The position numbers were made by a program, and so were the translations under genes. Source: Neophaeotheca triangularis (Eukaryota). Taken from it: a DNA stretch of 64,000 nt. Under the pieces are notes generated by a model. It saw only the letters and a program-made list of their open reading frames with translations. It had not been told where the DNA came from and did no database searches. Location of the stretch: assembly GCA_054600435.1 (NCBI GenBank), contig BAAIJX010000018.1, positions 248,001 through 312,000 on the forward strand, read 5' to 3'. Positions 4,115 through 14,000 of this stretch are shown here, piece after piece (positions within the stretch are counted from its first letter, which is position 1; every line of letters starts with the position of its first letter).

Positions 4115-5281
4115 ATGACCCAACACCTCTCCGAAGACGACATCTACCGGCAATCAAGCCAATACCGACTGTGGTCCTTCTCTCCCGAAAAGCTCGCCCA
4201 AACCCGGCGCAAAACCCACGACCTCGCCCTCGAACGAGCCCGCCGCTATGCCCCCCAAACAACCGGGCTAAACAGCCTCCCCGAAACCGAGATACCAAAC
4301 CACTGCCTCACTGAAGAGGAAGAACTCCGCCTAGTCCAGCGTTATAGCGACCAAATCCGCACCACGAGCGACAAACTCGGCTTCCCGGCCAACGCCAAGG
4401 CTACGGCTATCCAATACCTCAAGCGCTTCTACCTCTCCAACTCCTGCCTTACGTACCCGCCGAAGGAGATCTATAAGACGATTTTGTTTCTGGCTTGCAA
4501 GACTGAGGCCACCCACGTCACGCTTTCGGAGTATGCGAGGCGCATTTCCACCGACCCGGAGGTGGTGTTGGCGCCGGAGTATAAGGTCATGCAGGCGTTG
4601 AGGTTTACGTTGGATGTGAGGCAGCCCTATAGGGGGTTGAAGGGGGTCTTGATGGAGTTGTTGAATTTGGCTGCGGGAGTTGAGGGGGTGGGGATTGGGG
4701 CGGATGGGGAGAAGAGGACAGTGGGGGAGTTGAGGGAAGAGATGGGGACGTTGAGGGCACCGAGGGAGGAGGACAGAACGCTGTGGAAGGGTGGGAAGGC
4801 GGAGAAGACGACGGAAGAGAACCTCAGTGATCGTGTCAATGCTGCATACTCTGCTGCGAGGGATGTGCTGGATGCGCCGGCGCTGTTGACGGATGTTTAC
4901 TTTCTCTACACGCCTTCGCAGATACTGCTGGCAGCGATGTTGCTGGCTGACCAGTCGCTCATGGACTTCTACTTGGCTAGCAAACTACCTGTGTCCCTAC
5001 CGGAGCGGCCGAAGATTCTAGCTACGTTACGGGCGTGTGCAAACGTGCTGGCTTCTTACTCTCAGGCCGGAATATTGTCGAAAGACGAAAGGGCGGCATT
5101 GGAGGCGAAATTGGAGGGTTGCAGGGATCCAAACACCCGCGACTTGGTGAAAAGTCTTGCTTTGCGGCGAGGAGACGGCGGCGCAGATGGCAAGATCGAT
5201 CATGAGAAGGCTCAGAAGCGGGTAGCTGGCAGAGAAAAAAACAAGAAAGAAGGCGAAGATCTATTTGGACCGGCTTTGTAA
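4115..5281 (+). CDS. CCL1: Cyclin H / Ccl1 (TFIIK-CAK cyclin)
   Basis: YRQSSQYRLWSF N-terminus, cyclin box ATAIQYLKRFYL...LFLACKTE, and LTDVYFLYTPSQI. Confidence 0.9.
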   Translation: MTQHLSEDDIYRQSSQYRLWSFSPEKLAQTRRKTHDLALERARRYAPQTTGLNSLPETEIPNHCLTEEEELRLVQRYSDQIRTTSDKLGFPANAKATAIQYLKRFYLSNSCLTYPPKEIYKTILFLACKTEATHVTLSEYARRISTDPEVVLAPEYKVMQALRFTLDVRQPYRGLKGVLMELLNLAAGVEGVGIGADGEKRTVGELREEMGTLRAPREEDRTLWKGGKAEKTTEENLSDRVNAAYSAARDVLDAPALLTDVYFLYTPSQILLAAMLLADQSLMDFYLASKLPVSLPERPKILATLRACANVLASYSQAGILSKDERAALEAKLEGCRDPNTRDLVKSLALRRGDGGADGKIDHEKAQKRVAGREKNKKEGEDLFGPAL

Positions 5282-5431
5282 GCTCGCGGCACCTCGCTCT
5301 ACAATACATCTAGATGCTAGCAACTGGTGGGCGTAAGTATTGAGCAAGTCAAAGGCGGCCCTCTCTCTCTCTCCGCCTACCACTAGCCAACGAGCACTCT
5401 GTTCCGAAAGAATGCATCGAAGCAGTGTTAC

Positions 5432-6704
5432 TTATGCCACTTGCTGCTCATCCTTAACGCTCGCGACCCCTGGCTCCGCCTCAACTCCCTCGTCGATGAA
5501 CTTCGATATCGTGCCGAGAGCTCCGCCGACGGCCGAAAACATCTCCCCAACTGTGTAGAAGTCTTCGTATCGGCCAGTGCTCATAGCCGACGCTAAGCCG
5601 CTACTTTCTTCTAAACACACGTCGAGTTCTTTCTTGAGCAAAGTAAGACGACTGCGTTTCGAGGGCTTGGCTTCTTCGAGCCTTGAATCAGCCTTGCGCT
5701 TGTGGGTTGCTTGCGATTCATGGTGTGACTTGTTGCCGGCAGCACCTTTCACAGCAAGTGCGTTTGGCAGGGCGGCATCGATTGTGGTCGACTTGGCTTG
5801 TAGGGTCACGGAAGTGTCAGCCCTCAACTTGGGCGGGGGACGACTGTTGTCTTCGGCAAGCTCAGAATCCGATCCGAACGTGGACTGGTCTCCAGTCTCG
5901 TCGTCTGAAACTTCGTCGTCCTTGCTTTGGTACTCGTTGGGCTCGCTCTAATACGCGGTGGTCAGAATCATTCTGCACATCATCAGGGCATGGAAGCTTA
6001 CCTCGCTACCGCTGTCATCAAGTTCCCGCGTCTACAGGAAAGAGTTAGTATTGGGCAAGAGCTTTACGAGGTATGCTCTTGTCACTTGCTAGAAAATTGT
6101 CGGGCATCTGCTCACCCTCTTCGGACCCTTCAACACTGGCCATCTCATCCTCGTCATCCGAAACTACAAAGCCAATGCAGTTCAAGTGTTTGCGATATGC
6201 CTTTTCTCGAAGGTAGTTGACCGAGTTGACCTTGTCGACGACCCACTGGAAGCGATGGGACAGAGCCGATCGAAGAATTCGCAAATCACTCGGTGTGAGA
6301 ATGGCGTTGACCTTCGTCCGGTCCTTAGCACCCGCAAGCTCTTCCACGTCTTCCTGACAATAGTTGGGTCCGTGTTCGGGAGCCAGCTTCATAGTGAGGT
6401 TGACAAGCTTTTGCGCGGCCTCGTCCGTAGAAATAGTCACCACTTCGAGCAGGATGTATTCGAGCTTGATCTTTCTCAGGAACATGTGCAGCAGCGGCTT
6501 GATCGCGACTTGCTCGTAGCCGGAGGTGTCGAGAGTCAATGCTGCTTTGACATGGCCGTGCTGGCCCTCTGGGTATGGCCAGCATTCGCTGTCCTTGATT
6601 CCTTGGACGAAGTCGCGGATGTTGTCGCGGCGACGAAGGGTGTCCAGCTTCTCTTTCAAGTATGCTTCCGTCCTCGCTACTGCAGCTGCGTGTGGGTCAT
6701 CCAT
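5432..6704 (-). CDS. Orphan family member A (3 exons: 6704-6090, 6031-6002, 5947-5432)
   Basis: LRRRDNIRDFVQGI..ECWPYPEGQHGH motif shared with B and C. Predicted introns 6032-6089 (GC-AG, TACTAAC branch) and 5948-6001 (GT-AG) join the frames. Confidence 0.75.
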
Positions 6705-7150
6705 CTCGAAAGTACCGCGGTGGTGTTTGGTTCGAATCAGTGGATGCGTACGATGTTGTAGTGGATGAGTGCGGTGTCCTGTGAAGTGGAGTGAAGTGAA
6801 GTGAATTGAGGTCTCAGGACAGAAGGCGAGAAGCCCGGCGTAAGGCATAGGCAGCCCCTTTCACCTTTGAACGAAAAGCGGTGTCACGGGACTTCGACGC
6901 CAACACCCAGGAAAGAACAAACTTGGAAGTGACCTGCTTTCAATCAGGTCGTTAGGAAGAAATACTTTGAGGGGGGATTGAGAGTTGGTATTTCATGTCT
7001 CATTCTTGGCTAGTACTGGAAATTGAAGCAACTCAGTCCAGGGCCAGCACTTTAGGTACTCTAAAGAATAGATCGGCTGAGGTAAGAGCGAGTTTTGATG
7101 GCTTTCCATTGCATCACATAAAGTGCATTTGCTCCATCAGTGACCGTTCC

Positions 7151-8497
7151 TCACGACTGAGAGTCTTCCTTTAACCCGGTAAAGAGCTGAGCCACTGTGT
7201 TCATGCCTTCAGACATGGCCGTGAACACGCCACCGATTGCGGCCAAATCGATTTGCGAGCCTCGCTGCATGTTCTTGCCCATAGACTCGATGAAGCTTGC
7301 CGTGTCCCTGAGTTCGCTGAGGAGCCCGTCAGGACGCTGACGCTTCGTGGGTCCGTGGTCATCTTCGGCAGCTGCGCGCTTGCGAGGAACGACCGCATTG
7401 GGTTGTGGAACGTTTTCCTCGTACCTGGCCCCAAGCATGGCTTTCACGGGCATCTTGGCATCAGGATCCGGGACAAGGGCTTTCTGCTCAGAAGATAGGG
7501 GGTTGGGTGACTCCTGAACAGGGTGTGCAGACGAAAACGCCTCACCGATGCCGAGTCGAGATCCTGCTTGCGATGCCGTTTCTGCAGGCATGTCCGAGTC
7601 CGATTCTCCGGTGTCGATCTCATCATCTTCGGAAGTGTCTCTAAGACACCGTCAGCTATTCCCGTCACAGTGCTCCAACGTTTGCGGGCACGTAACTCAC
7701 TCTTCGAGATCAAGCTTCCACTCCTCCAAGTCTTCCTTGTACTCGTACATCTGTAAAGTATAGTTAGCTTTTCCATCGATTACAGGGGATGTTTCAATAC
7801 CACGTACGTCGTCGTCGAGCAGATCCTGGTCGTCGTCGAGCAGATTCTGGTCCTCGTCGAGCAGATCATGGTCCTTGTCGAGCAGATCCTGGTCCTCGTC
7901 GAGCAGATCCTGGTCCTCGTCGAGCATGGCGTCCCCCTCGAGCAGGTCCTCGCTCCATGCCATGGCAACCTCAAAGGTGCCCAAATCCTCATGCAACCCG
8001 ATGTGCTTGAGGTACGCGTCCTCTCTTGCCGCATTAGCATAGCAGATTTTGCTGGCAACCCACAAGTAGCGCTCGAGGTGCCGATGTTGGAAGGTTCTGA
8101 GGATACTTGGGGTGACGGTCGGGACGAGACCGTTGTCGTTACGTTCAATCTTCTCAAAGGCGATCTCGTATGTGCCCATTCCTAGTGGGGTAAGAAGCTT
8201 GATGGTAACGTTGCAGAGTTCTCCGTTATTGAGGACCTTCTCAAGTGTGAACACCTTGAGGGCTTGGTACGCCGATGGCTTGAGTACGACTCGCTTGAAA
8301 CCCGTCACCTCGTCCAGAGTGAGGGCAGCTTCGGAATTACCGTTCTGTGCGTTGGGGTACGGCCAACACTCGCAAGCTTCAATGCCATGGACGAAATCCC
8401 TGATGTTGTCTCGGCGAATGATGTCGTGCATTTTCGTTTTCAGGTAGTCGTCTCGGACGTCTCCCAGGCCTTCTAAAGACACAGAATCGGTGGTCAT
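7151..8497 (-). CDS. Orphan family member B (3 exons: 8497-7808, 7750-7701, 7640-7151)
   Basis: IRRDNIRDFVHGI..ECWPYPNAQNGN motif. GT-AG introns 7751-7807 and 7641-7700 with GCTAAC/GCTGAC branch sites; splicing restores frame with ORF 7151..7591. Confidence 0.8.
7808..7924 (-). repeat. 21-bp coding minisatellite, ~5.6 copies, encoding LDEDQDL
   Basis: Repeated gtcgagcagatcctggtcctc units on the + strand. Confidence 0.95.
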
Positions 8498-9347
8498 CTT
8501 GTAGGTGACAAAGTCAAAGGGCATATGTTGCAAGAGGAGAACCAGGTAGGATGAATACCTCCCGCTGTCGTATGGTGTGAAATGTAACGAGGCTCAATCG
8601 GTATCAGTCAACAGGTGTTGATCGATGACGGTAGGTTTCGTAAAGTTGGCTATATGATGTCCTGGAAGCGCCGAGTAAGTGAATCGAGGGAAATCGATAC
8701 TACTTGCTGTGTCAAGTTAGTCTTCACAAGTCCGATGTCAAAGTATCAAGATCGAAAAGGACACCCTGAAGTACCCGACGTAGAAAAGTCGAGGAGAGCT
8801 CTTCTGGCACATTCGATCGGAGCTTTTGTAAAATTGCTGGCTAGGTAGGCCTCAGAGATACTGCTTTGTTGGAGAGACTGTCTAGACCTTGTGAGTCCTT
8901 CAAAGGAGATCTGCCCACACGGAGAGTATGTTCGAGGCTCACTTTGAGTGTTGCGTGGGAATGAGTCCACAACTTGTCAAGTAACGCGAATTGAGCATAT
9001 GCTGGTGGCCAAACAGATTCGAGTGAATGGATGGATATTTGACAGCCGTACTGGCAAAGCTTTAGCATCAATTGGCTTAAGCTCTCTCAGGGGTCTGTCT
9101 GGGCGCAAGAATGGTCGACATGCGGCGAAAGAACTTGGAACACCATTCGTTCATCGTCAAGTATTGCTCTAGCCACCACTTCAATTTACTAACAGCTACA
9201 CTTCAATCAGCTACACTTCTCATGGTCATTTCACACCCGAACACAGAGCTCACTTCCAATATAACGATGCCTCTTCAACAAAGTAGCGACTGACCGTCAA
9301 GTGCTGACCCGCCAAACCTCGCCGCAGCAAGACCACTTCGAACAAGC

Positions 9348-10549
9348 CTAGTCCCCATTCTCAGTCTTCAGCAGATCCCCAATAGCCGTCAGGCATGTGG
9401 CAACATCCATCAACTGGTGGCCGACGTTTTTAAAACCTGAAGATTCGCCTTTGTGCATCTTTGCAGCGTTGAACTCGACACCGTCGGCGTAATCAGTCAG
9501 CAGCTCCGCCAGATCTGCACGACGCTGATGTTTGATGCAGAGTTTTCCCTCCGCGGGTGAGGCTGAGGCTGGACGCTTGCGATCTACCAGTGTGTCGGAA
9601 ACAGATTCAGGCTCTTCGCTGTCAGGGCCGGTGGTGATCTTGCCGGTTTGGGCGGCAGAATTTCTCGGCTCGCGTGGGACCAGCAAGCTCGATTCAGATT
9701 GGTCACGTTTGAGTCCAGGAGAGGCACGGTCGATTGTCTCCGCAGGTGCGATATCCGACATGGACTCGTCGCTGCCATCGGTGCTAGCCTCAGTCTCGCC
9801 CTCCTCGCTTTCGTACTCATTGAGCTGGGCGAAAGTCGTTAGCAGCTGCATGACTGGCAAGAAAGAGGAAAACCATACATCGCTTTCCTCAGCGCTACCT
9901 CCACGATTGACCCACTCCTAGAGATCAAAGTTAGCATGGCTTCGTAACTTCTCATTGCGCTGGTGATGCTCACTCCTTGGCGATAGCCGGACATCTCACG
10001 CTCGCCCTCCTCCGATCCTTCAGCTGGAGACTGGTAGCCATCGCTGGAGACATCGATGTCGACATTGTCGTTCACCTGTCGCAAGACCTTCTCACGCTGG
10101 TAGTTCACGCTGGAGACCTTGCTGTTGACCCACTCGTAGCGATTCAGCAAGGCAGAGCGCAGATCGCGCACGCTGCTGGGCTCCAGCTCAGCATTCGAGT
10201 GATGTACCGCGTGGTCGAGAATGTCGGATTCTTCCTGGCAGTAGCTCGGGCCAAGCTCGGGGAGGATCTTGATAGTGAAGTTGACGAGCGTTCGACGGTA
10301 CGTGACACTTTCGAGCTTGACTCTCCTGAGTGGCATGTTCTTCATCGGCTTGATGTACACCATCTTGGGCTGGAGATCGTTACCAGAGAAAGCAGCCACT
10401 GGGTGACCGTTCTGTCCCTCTGGATAAGGCCAGCATTCTGAAGGATGGAGCCCTATTACAAAGTCTCGGATGTTGTCTCGACGACGAAGCGTGGCAAGCA
10501 TTTCCGCGAGATACGTGTTCGATCCAATGGTCGTCTCGGTGTCTGCCAT
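9348..10549 (-). CDS. Orphan family member C (3 exons: 10549-9974, 9917-9879, 9824-9348)
   Basis: LRRRDNIRDFVIGL..ECWPYPEGQNGH motif. GT-AG introns 9918-9973 and 9825-9878, each with GCTAAC; frames join. Confidence 0.8.
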
Positions 10550-11008
10550 TGTGCTTGCGGTGCCGTGGAGTATACTTAGGTAGGGCAACCGTGGACGGAG
10601 CGAGGCGAAGGGGAAGGTGGGAGATGGAGTGAAGTTGAAGTGAGCTGAAAGGTAGAAAGGAAAGGGTGGAAGAGTGGTACGATGCCTGAAGATGATGACA
10701 GGTGCGGGCATCTGAGGTACCTACCTACCTTAGGTAGCCTAAATCGCTGCTGCAGTATACGTTAGGCAGCTGCCACGCGCTGTCACGGGACCTCAACGCC
10801 TTGACCGACTCTTGGATAGAGGCAAGAACGACCTCGCAAACGCAGCTGAAGGCTTCGCCTAGGTAATGTACGGCCACTGAAGGGGCATACCATAATAGTA
10901 GCAACAAAGAAGTCGTAACTCATCGTTATCGCATCAAAATACCTACCTACCCACCCACCTACCTACCTCGCATCCCTCGCATCCCTCCATATGAATGATC
11001 ACCATCAC

Positions 11009-14000
11009 CTAATAACTCCCCACCGTTCCACGACAACTCACGAAAAACTCCCTCACCACATCCCTAGTCTTCTTCGCGCCCCTAAGCGCGATGACCTGTT
11101 GCAAAAACCTCCTTTTCTCCGCCTCGCCAACCCCCTGCCCTTCGACAGGCTGCGGGAAGCCCTCCCCAAGCAACGCCCGCTCCAGCCACCGCTTAGCAAC
11201 AGGCACGTTGTACACGAGTGCCTTGAGCGGTTCGCACAAGTAATCGAGCTCGGAACGCTGGCCCAAACCACCGATCTGCGCCATCAGCGCCACGCTGAGT
11301 TGCGGGCCGTAATGGGAGAGAAGTTCTTGGGTTTGGCCTTTGACGGTGTTATCGGAGTGGGTGGTTTGCGGGCCGGCGAGGGTAATGAGTTTGGCCCAGA
11401 AGTCGCAGGCGGAGCGTTTGGGGAGGGGATCTTGGCCGCGGACGGCTTGGATTGTGTAGGAGAGGATGAGGGTCTGAGACTCTTGGGGAGAGTTGAGGAG
11501 AAGGGTGGCGTAGGTTGGGAGCAGGCGGCTGCAGACGTCGAAGAGGGCTTGGGCTATAGAAGGGTCGTTTGCCGGGTCGACTAAGCGGCTGAGGAGTTCG
11601 GAGACGCTGGCGAGAATTTGGGTGACTTCAGGTTCGATGCGTGAGGTGTTTTGGCGGCTGTGTTGCGTAATGAGCATGCCGGCGGTGGAGAGGACGCTTT
11701 CAAGCTGAGAGGTGCTGAGGGAGCATTGCTGAAGGAAGTTGACGGTGACGGATGGTGGGAGGACGAACGGTCCAGGTGTTGACTCGGCGAAGCCACTGCG
11801 CAGCACACTGCAAGCGGCGTCGATCGCTTCACCGCTGTTGTTGAGGATGTTGAGGATGGAGAAGCAGCCGGTGATGCGATGTTGCAGTCCAGTGCCCTCG
11901 GCACTACTCCATACCTCCGCCTTTTCCTTGGCCGCTTGTGCGTCATTCTCGTCGTCGTCAAGAAGTATAGGCACGTCCTCGGGTACCTGCGAAGCTCTCC
12001 CTATGCTTGCTAGACACGTCAAGGCGCTCACACCGGTCGATTCTGCTGACTCCGGATCACCAGCTTCCATGTACTGTCGAGTGCGTTCAGCGTCCTGGCT
12101 CACATTGTCCAACAGTGCCATGAGTGGACGTATCTTCAGGCTTTCCGGTTGCAAAGCTTGTATAATTGAAGCAATGCCACCAACAACCTTCTCTTTCGTG
12201 TATGAATCGCACGTCGAGGACTGCAAGAAGCGCTGATACTGCGAGAGGAAACCATCCAGCTCACTTGTGAGACTCTGCCGACAGGCTGAGCACAAGAGGG
12301 CGATTGATTTCGCAGAGGAGTTTGCAAGTGCTGGTGCCTCGAGCGAAGCAAACAAAAATCGAAGTGCGTCCGGGAGGTACTCGGCATGTTGCTCAATGTA
12401 GTCACCGTAATATCCGAGCATGTCGACCGCCGTCCGCCGGGTCTGTGGTGGTATCTGTTGGGTAAAGTCGGCCACCTCGCGAAAGAGGCTCGAGCCAAAG
12501 ACTGAAGCTAGCGGAGTCTGGTCGCTATTTCCTTCGAGTATGTTGTCTACAAGCATGCTGAGGCAATACATTGCAGCCTCGAGAGGCCGCCATGCCTTTG
12601 CTTTGAGTGAGCTGAGCAAAAGCTGCACAAGTTGGATCTGTATCTCGCTGCCTTTCAACACGAACATTGAACCCACGCAATCCGTCGCGTCAGTCCTGAA
12701 CTCGCGGTACAAACTCTTCTCCTGGTCCTCCCAGCAGTCTGTTATCTCTGTTGGTGGAATCTGCATCTTGAAGCACAAAGCATCGACTACCCCCGGCAGG
12801 ACATCTTTTGCAGGCGCCAGCCACGACGGCCGGGGTGCGTTGAGATCCAACGAAAACTGGGTGTCGATGACCAGTTCCACGTAGGTATTCCAGAAATCAA
12901 CTGTCGAAGCGGAGAGAGAATCGTTCCAGCCAGGCCAGGACTTTGGCTCACGCAGAATTTTGTCGCCAAGCAGTGTGAACAGATACTGTGAGTGATCGCT
13001 AGTCGGACTGTACATTATGTCTTGCACCACTGCTTTGCTGTAGGCGACGATAACCTCCCCAAAATCGGCAGCCTCGTCGAATTGCTCCTCCTGGAAAAGC
13101 TCGAGCATGCGCGGCCCGAGTCGAGAAACTATGACTTGTCCCAGGAGTTGCATGTCTTCTGGTCGGAAGAAGCTCGTATATGTGTCCAGAATATCGCGGA
13201 CGACGTCAAGAGCTTCTGATTCGAGATCGTTTTCGGAAATCAGGTACCGGAAGACGGAAGGCGAGATGGACCTTACGTGCTCGAGTGCTTCCGGTTTGGT
13301 CGGCCACATCGGCTGGGCGTAGCTGATCCAGGTCTTCGAAACATTAGTCAAGCTCTACGTTATTAGAGTTGAGAGCACTTACCTGAAGGCATCGTAGAGC
13401 CTCACTGCTGCTGGTAGCAGCAGTATCGTCCTGCCCATCTAAGCCCCACGTAATGACGACTCGCGCGTCCGCCACGATGGCTTCCATTTGAGCATGATGC
13501 TTAGCGTGGGCTGGGCTAGAGTTTTCAATCTTGCCAACCTCATGTGCCAGGGTCGCACAGAATTGCAGGATGGACTCGTAGTGTCGGAGAGTCGGCAGGG
13601 GGAACAACTGCTGCATGGTGACGCCGGCCTTGCTCACATCGTCCATGGTGAGAGCAGCGCCATGCTTGAAGGAGGCCGCCAGTTGCAAGAGCGGATGCTC
13701 CCACAGGACAGGCGAGCGGATGTAGTAGGTAGCGAGGGTCGAGCACAGTTTCTTGCGAACAAGACCGGACTGTTCGCGTTGGATTGAAACGATCTGTGTC
13801 GGTCAGCGCGACTCCTAGGGAGGGGCGATTCATGGCACATTAATTTAGGGGGCAACTCACAATCCAATGAATCAGTCGATGAAGTACTGTTTGCGCGGCG
13901 CCCTCGTCGAGTGAAGCCCTGAGTATGTGTATTAGCAAATGCTTCACCGTCTCTCAATTCAGGGCGCTACTGACCCATCATTATTGAGCTTTACTTGGAA

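Follow-up and report, generated by a model that had tools for sequence, protein, structure and literature searches.

The stretch of the Neophaeotheca triangularis genome analyzed here (64,000 nucleotides (nt) from GenBank assembly GCA_054600435.1, contig BAAIJX010000018.1, positions 248,001–312,000 of the forward strand; referred to as the window and numbered from its first nucleotide) contains, between positions 5432 and 10549, three minus-strand pairs of open reading frames (ORFs): 6045–6860 with 5432–5947, 7697–8593 with 7151–7651, and 9839–10720 with 9348–9917. Each pair can be assembled into one gene, and the three genes, A, B and C, encode related proteins with a common N-terminal domain (N-domain). 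As stated in the original prediction for this stretch, the genes are co-oriented and flanked by a cyclin H gene on one side and an importin gene on the other, both of which were identified by their Pfam domains (Table 1). A profile scan of the six frames of the whole window detected exactly three copies of the N-domain. The GC content across the region is ordinary (0.47–0.56), with no AT-rich stretch, and no terminal or dispersed repeats were found within 5000–11200, a coding 21-nt repeat excepted; nothing supports the proposal that the array escaped repeat-induced point mutation by divergence.

The gene models were built by enumerating, for each gene, the introns that hold the frame between the ATG and the last codon of the downstream ORF. 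All three frames are intact and give complete open models, each composed of three exons (615, 30 and 516 nt in gene A, 690, 50 and 490 nt in gene B, 576, 39 and 477 nt in gene C), and the two short introns around a micro-exon that had been predicted for each gene have the sizes claimed. All six predicted introns end in YAG and carry, 15–20 nt upstream, CTAAC or CTGAC, the usual fungal branch-point signal.

In their shared parts, the products of genes A and C match, letter for letter, two hypothetical proteins of N. triangularis deposited at NCBI, MBLNU230_g2185t1 and MBLNU230_g2187t1 (P0002, 371 aa, and P0030, 381 aa, respectively). A genome announcement that lists strains of N. triangularis (PMC13064199) does not contain the term RNA-seq. 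P0002 equals the gene A protein except where intron 1 begins: the public model relies on a weak GTTGAA donor at 6134, 45 nt upstream of the donor that we propose, with the loss of 15 conserved residues, including an EGSEEGE motif that is common to gene C and whose S-E-E core is nearly invariant throughout the family. Two GT donors tried for this intron, GTGAGC (6115) and GTGACA (6085), both break the frame, and a frame-keeping intron of 58 nt requires the donor GCAAGT. We prefer the GC donor because of the frame and of the family-wide S-E-E motif; intron 1 of gene A is thus probably a GC-AG intron. Note that a comparison of gene A with a near-identical variant (P0001) reveals one change among the 15 codons that separate the candidate donors and four among the 14 codons past the GC donor, too few to decide between them. 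Intron 2 of gene C, which has good splice signals, is in frame, and read-through also stays open; P0030 translates it, thereby gaining 18 mostly hydrophobic residues that fall inside an otherwise acidic linker. The P0030 model probably holds a retained intron. Two annotation fixes can be proposed on this basis, namely a probable GC-AG intron in gene A and the removal of an apparent retained intron from the public gene C model.

Table 1. Features of the three-gene locus and of its surroundings (window coordinates).
Feature	Position	Strand	Remarks
Gene A	5432..6704	-	exons 6704-6090, 6031-6002, 5947-5432 (stop included); 386 aa
Gene A introns	6089-6032; 6001-5948	-	predicted; 58 nt, GC-AG, donor GCAAGT; 54 nt
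Gene B	7151..8497	-	exons 8497-7808, 7750-7701, 7640-7151 (stop included); 409 aa
Gene B introns	7807-7751; 7700-7641	-	predicted; 57 nt; 60 nt
Gene C	9348..10549	-	exons 10549-9974, 9917-9879, 9824-9348 (stop included); 363 aa
Gene C introns	9973-9918; 9878-9825	-	predicted; 56 nt; 54 nt, in frame
N-domain core, gene A	6204..6632	-	from RRDNIRDFV..ECWPYP (6632-6570) to the long-helix motif (6281-6204)
N-domain core, gene B	8021..8416	-	first-exon alignment, motif coordinates
N-domain core, gene C	10091..10483	-	alignment; sequence used for the AlphaFold2 model
Bipartite basic motif, gene A (putative nuclear localization signal)	5645..5701	-	KRKx12KRSR; KRKADSRLEEAKPSKRSRL
Bipartite basic motif, gene B	7331..7384	-	RKRx10KRQR; RKRAAAEDDHGPTKRQRP
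Bipartite basic motif, gene C	9519..9581	-	RKRx13KHQRR; RKRPASASPAEGKLCIKHQRR
C-terminal part, predicted helical hairpin	A 5435..5644; B 7154-7330; C 9351-9518	-	
21-nt tandem repeat, about 6 copies, end of gene B exon 1	7787..7947	-	encodes DEDQDLL-type acidic heptads
24-nt upstream element, genes A and C	6878-6901; 10777-10800	-	21 of 24 bases identical
CACTTCA-type leader repeat, genes A and C	6780-6807; 10618-10635	-	repeat search
Cyclin H (Ccl1-type) gene	4115-5278	+	Pfam Cyclin_C_2, E 2.6e-29; convergent with gene A
Importin-13/transportin-3-type gene	11012-13354	-	Pfam, E 5.3e-12

The first exons translate into 205 (A), 230 (B) and 192 (C) residues; 47 of the 243 columns of their alignment are invariant, and the B and C sequences are 36 and 48% identical to that of A, respectively. 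Pairwise BLASTP comparison of the N-domains (~170 aa) gave E values of 1e-20 to 1e-48 for a nominal database size of 1e8; by this measure of sequence similarity, the three N-domains are clear paralogues, far past chance. Both motifs attributed to the trio, RRDNIRDFVxG.....ECWPYP and R..R.....R..WV..K....N..RE, are indeed present. In an alignment of 21 members of the family (gene C numbering), R24, D25, N26, E38, P41, P43, R137 and W140 are invariant and R23, F30, G33, L34, V64, P97, G100, G102, R131, K144, N149, R152 and E180 nearly so. The Cys-Trp pair of ECWPYP is restricted to one clade, the distant relatives having E(V/I)(F/Y)PYP instead. Several of the conserved residues of the long helix are spaced i, i+3/4, i+7, so that they would form one basic/aromatic face, as judged from sequence and secondary structure. 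A conserved acidic motif, the S-E-E mentioned above, closes exon 1.

The N-domain is followed by (i) a disordered, acidic linker of 100–150 residues, rich in Ser and Thr (13–24), with 25 (A), 50 (B) and 30 (C) Asp and Glu versus 8, 8 and 9 Lys and Arg; (ii) a bipartite basic motif; and (iii) a predicted helical hairpin. The repeat encoding the DEDQDLL heptads is an expansion specific to the gene B copy. The basic motifs (KRK..KRSR, RKR..KRQR and RKR..KHQRR) are found as originally described, the pattern KR-x10-13-K(R/H)xR standing directly ahead of the first tail helix in all three copies, and a like pattern, KR...KKKAR or KKQR, again followed by a helix, occurs in members of another clade (proteins P0039 and P0011 and metagenome locus L005). 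The consensus of a bipartite nuclear localization signal (NLS) is (K/R)(K/R)-x10-12-(3 of 5 basic). In the AlphaFold2 (AF2) model of full-length P0002, residues 180–295 are disordered (predicted local distance difference test score (pLDDT) <50) and the C-terminal part forms two helices, 297–323 and 328–356, with a pLDDT of 71–85. In a fold search, the matches of this model were confined to the tail and to helical hairpins of a generic kind, such as the antiparallel hairpins of PKN1 HR1b (4nkg_B), PspA (4whe_A) and Mediator Med11/Med22 (3r84_A), and Foldseek returned nothing.

The claim that the N-domain falls into no curated family is borne out by our searches. Scanning Pfam-A (hmmscan) with the six window pieces and eight relatives gave nothing at E≤1 except two rows below the gathering cut-offs, SURF2 (10.5 bits, cut-off 25) and Death_EDAR (13 bits, cut-off 27), which are at chance level; a confident match to a Pfam family or to a transposable element (TE) protein was looked for and none was found, so that the original prediction survives this check. 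The 21-sequence alignment, searched against 177,635 distinct PDB sequences with hmmsearch, gave a best E value of 0.42, and a full-text literature search yielded no paper containing ECWPYP, RRDNIRDF or CWPYP. A language-model search returned only clusters named "hypothetical protein" (0.92 and 0.91) and DUF7730 (0.89), with low recognition, and no usable match when limited to named clusters.

The N-domain of gene C, modeled by AF2 with the 21-sequence alignment, has a mean pLDDT of 81.9 (80–82 for the five models) and a predicted template modeling score of 0.72. The model comprises three helices (residues 5–22, 68–75 and 124–163, the last one 40 residues long) and four strands (76–84, 87–95, 104–110 and 120–122); the conserved loop is partly of low confidence, residues 43–48 being below pLDDT 50. 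Comparison of this model with 350,542 PDB chains by Foldseek gave no match at E≤0.001 (best E 1.2), and further fold searches, including one of 48,161 representative PDB chains, gave nothing above background. A weak or absent match does not show that a fold is new; the N-domain may nevertheless prove to be one. Homodimer prediction for the N-domain scored 0.00 in two runs, made without the alignment and, in one or both of them, with doubt about the partner's own fold, and it is evidence neither way.

Searching 1,835,955,588 representative proteins with a HMMER profile of the three N-domains retrieved 29 proteins at E≤0.001, of which 20 passed 1e-10 and four 1e-30, the three best being the genes of the window themselves or variants nearly identical to them. 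The trio, called an orphan family in the original prediction, is therefore not an orphan in the strict sense: with 29 relatives in three clades, it belongs to a small family rather than to a single species. A word-index search with the 21-sequence profile found 12 proteins, two of which carry an organism name: that of N. triangularis, and P0039, which belongs to an unplaced Dothideomycete (Dothideomycetes sp. NU457). A scan of metagenome contigs found nine loci. A maximum-likelihood tree of 24 members resolves the three clades. Within the ECWPYP clade (support 99/97), the trio forms one group, supported at 88/83 and recovered in 85% of bootstrap trees; gene B, the most diverged copy, sits on a branch of 2.04 changes per column and is placed with less certainty. 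The tree is most simply read as a triplication in this lineage. From the second clade (EVFPFP type), a complete member is found at locus L005 (843–2060); it has an acidic linker, a KR...KKQR motif and a helical tail. At loci L001 (251–), L002 (8258–8938) and L003 (4596–5234), the variable loop past PYP contains an insert rich in Cys (C.CCGE). The cyclin H encoded at L003 is closest to that of Pseudocercospora (53%, versus 34–37% for Eurotiomycetes, long models only being searched), a weak hint that this contig comes from a Dothideomycete. Judging from the members that are named or can be placed, the family is so far limited to Dothideomycete-type fungi, a range that is a lower bound.

Purifying selection, which had been proposed, is apparent from the metagenome orthologues. 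Using the Nei–Gojobori method on the first exons of L001, L002, L003 and L009, with ORFs that reach slightly into the intron, we obtained ratios of nonsynonymous to synonymous substitution rates (dN/dS) of 0.14–0.19 in five of the six pairs and of 0.40 in the closest pair, at a dS of 0.06. Synonymous differences between A, B and C are saturated (proportion pS 0.72–0.78); the duplications are therefore old, and the idea of an old array holds. The position of the gene could be judged in three of the nine metagenome loci, those that reach at least 2 kb past the N-domain match. A convergent cyclin H gene lies immediately downstream in L002 and L003, as in the window, and in the part of each contig that was retrieved the family is represented once. 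Ancestrally, the family gene was probably single and lay tail-to-tail with cyclin H.

In the window, the stop codons of cyclin H (plus strand) and gene A (minus strand) are only ~150 nt apart (5281–5432), so that the 3' ends of the two genes probably overlap or abut. On the 5' side, the 24-nt element of genes A and C sits ~175–250 nt before their ATGs; gene B has neither this element nor the CACTTCA-type leader repeat. These two sequences, kept although A/C synonymous sites are saturated, suggest a conserved regulatory element.

Altogether, it is highly probable that the three genes represent a real, constrained protein-coding family with the layout described above. The following scheme could account for it. 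A single ancestral gene placed tail-to-tail with cyclin H would have undergone an old triplication in this lineage, the three copies then diverging in the tail and the linker. Each protein consists of an N-domain modeled as alpha/beta (an N-terminal helix, then the loop with RRDN...E..PYP, then a short helix that leads to a sheet of four strands, and last the 40-residue helix, in which R, R, W, K, N and R are conserved), the acidic S-E-E motif, the acidic linker, and the basic motif with a predicted hairpin of ~65 residues. The basic/aromatic face of the N-domain would bind a conserved partner, the linker, probably phosphorylated, would bind basic nuclear proteins, the basic motif would direct nuclear import by the classical, importin-alpha-dependent route, and the C-terminal hairpin might serve for self-association or for the binding of a second partner. 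S-x-x-E/D sequences resemble CK2 sites. We give a probability of about 0.55 to this combined reading, in which a real, triplicated family acts as nuclear adaptors or chaperone-like factors. Regarding its parts, the pattern of the basic motif somewhat favors a putative nuclear localization, and a chromatin or histone-chaperone-like role is doubtful.

Several observations weigh against the proposed scheme. The gene models and splice sites are predictions made from sequence alone, and an AF2 model, even a confident one, can be wrong when its alignment has no more than 21 sequences. It is from the layout only that we infer import into the nucleus, the binding of partners and a chaperone-like role, and in gene C the spacer of the basic motif is 13 residues long, beyond the 10–12 of the consensus. 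Compared with one another by BLASTP, the three tails gave no match at E≤10: of the alignable C-terminal helix proposed originally, the common layout and the M..G...(V/I)G pattern stand, and a measurable sequence similarity does not. Furthermore, in a three-frame reading that gave no gene model, the tails of L001–L003, the closest metagenome relatives, look different, so that the conserved architecture rests on the trio together with P0039, P0011 and L005. Finally, no cyclin H was found within ~2.9 kb downstream of L005, which belongs to another clade.

Two alternatives retain a constrained family and change its place or its novelty. The proteins could be cytoplasmic, the basic stretch being a membrane-, RNA- or protein-binding patch of the C-terminal module, as its position suggests, given that it abuts and may enter the first C-terminal helix; yet the two-cluster pattern is found in all three paralogues, although their tails cannot otherwise be aligned by BLASTP, and again in the distant P0039 and P0011, and we consider this possibility unlikely. 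It is also improbable that the domain is not new at all and that a known nuclear factor, tied for instance to cyclin H, the CDK-activating kinase (CAK) or TFIIH, has evolved so fast in this family as to escape the sequence and fold searches. The position next to cyclin H, kept in two contigs whose family proteins are only ~30–34% identical to those of the window, would fit such a factor, and empty fold searches, as said above, are not proof of a new fold. Rather more speculative is a new-fold nuclear factor of Dothideomycete black yeasts that is functionally coupled to cyclin H (CAK/TFIIH), which could occur through the overlapping 3' ends or through a physical interaction. We hold it to be quite improbable; if true, the triplication would have produced three specialized transcription or cell-cycle regulators in a lineage known for its unusual modes of cell division.

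The remaining alternatives deny the family an ordinary cellular role. A selfish or conflict system, i.e. meiotic drive, spore killing or the non-self recognition raised in the original prediction, would be in keeping with a tandem array, with a family confined to a narrow lineage and with the fast evolution of gene B (branch of 2.04) and its expanded acidic repeat. This is very unlikely: dN/dS among orthologues is 0.14–0.19, the saturated synonymous sites between the paralogues imply an array that is old and stable, the relatives are single-copy where this is visible (L002 and L003, in the stretch fetched) and their position is conserved, and no HET, NACHT, toxin or nuclease domain was detected by Pfam at E≤1, a scan that drive genes devoid of signature would escape. 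That the genes are TE relics, pseudogenes or annotation artefacts is scarcely credible and already largely refuted. The public models do disagree, P0002 dropping a conserved motif and P0030 keeping a likely intron, but the frames are intact and the intron signals consistent in all three copies, terminal and dispersed repeats are absent from the region, the coding 21-nt repeat aside, Pfam scans of the window pieces detect no transposase, reverse transcriptase or integrase domain, the window holds just the three copies, and the relatives are under purifying selection.

We conclude that the locus encodes a genuine, undescribed protein family, the novelty of which covers the family and possibly the fold, not the mechanism. 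Lineage-restricted families without assigned function are common in fungi; a conserved, constrained and confidently modeled domain without a known relative is nonetheless a reasonable candidate for solving a structure and for adding a family to the databases. Should the proteins be nuclear adaptors, an unrecognized component would be added to the nuclear biology of melanised marine and extremotolerant Dothideomycetes, which are little studied.

Three known systems invite comparison. The UBC/UEV/RWD fold recurred among the Foldseek rows, in several E2, UEV and RWD chains, at E values of 1.6–4.1, TM scores of 0.08–0.16 and root-mean-square deviations of 16–21 Å on the listed rows (with one exception, 2a7l_A, at 9.5 Å), and we treated these rows as noise; in both folds a small antiparallel sheet and helices come after an N-terminal helix, whereas in the N-domain the order of elements differs, the sheet being preceded by a conserved loop of some length and by an additional helix. 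DUF7730 (PF24864) likewise groups ascomycete proteins without assigned function and came up in the language-model search (cosine 0.89, 99 of 256 features in common); given a score below 0.9 and no hmmscan match at E≤1, it is a lead only. A parallel in layout is offered by the acidic nuclear chaperones of the nucleoplasmin (NPM) type. The Nucleoplasmin Pfam domain was found in none of the window pieces or the eight relatives. The comparison concerns the way in which the proteins may work and does not claim membership. Nucleoplasmin has a folded N-domain, acidic tracts and then a bipartite basic motif, and this succession of acidic tracts and bipartite pattern is present in the trio. In contrast to the eight-stranded beta-sandwich pentamer of nucleoplasmin, however, the N-domain of the trio is predicted to combine four strands with a 40-residue helix, and its proteins carry an extra helical hairpin at the C-terminus.

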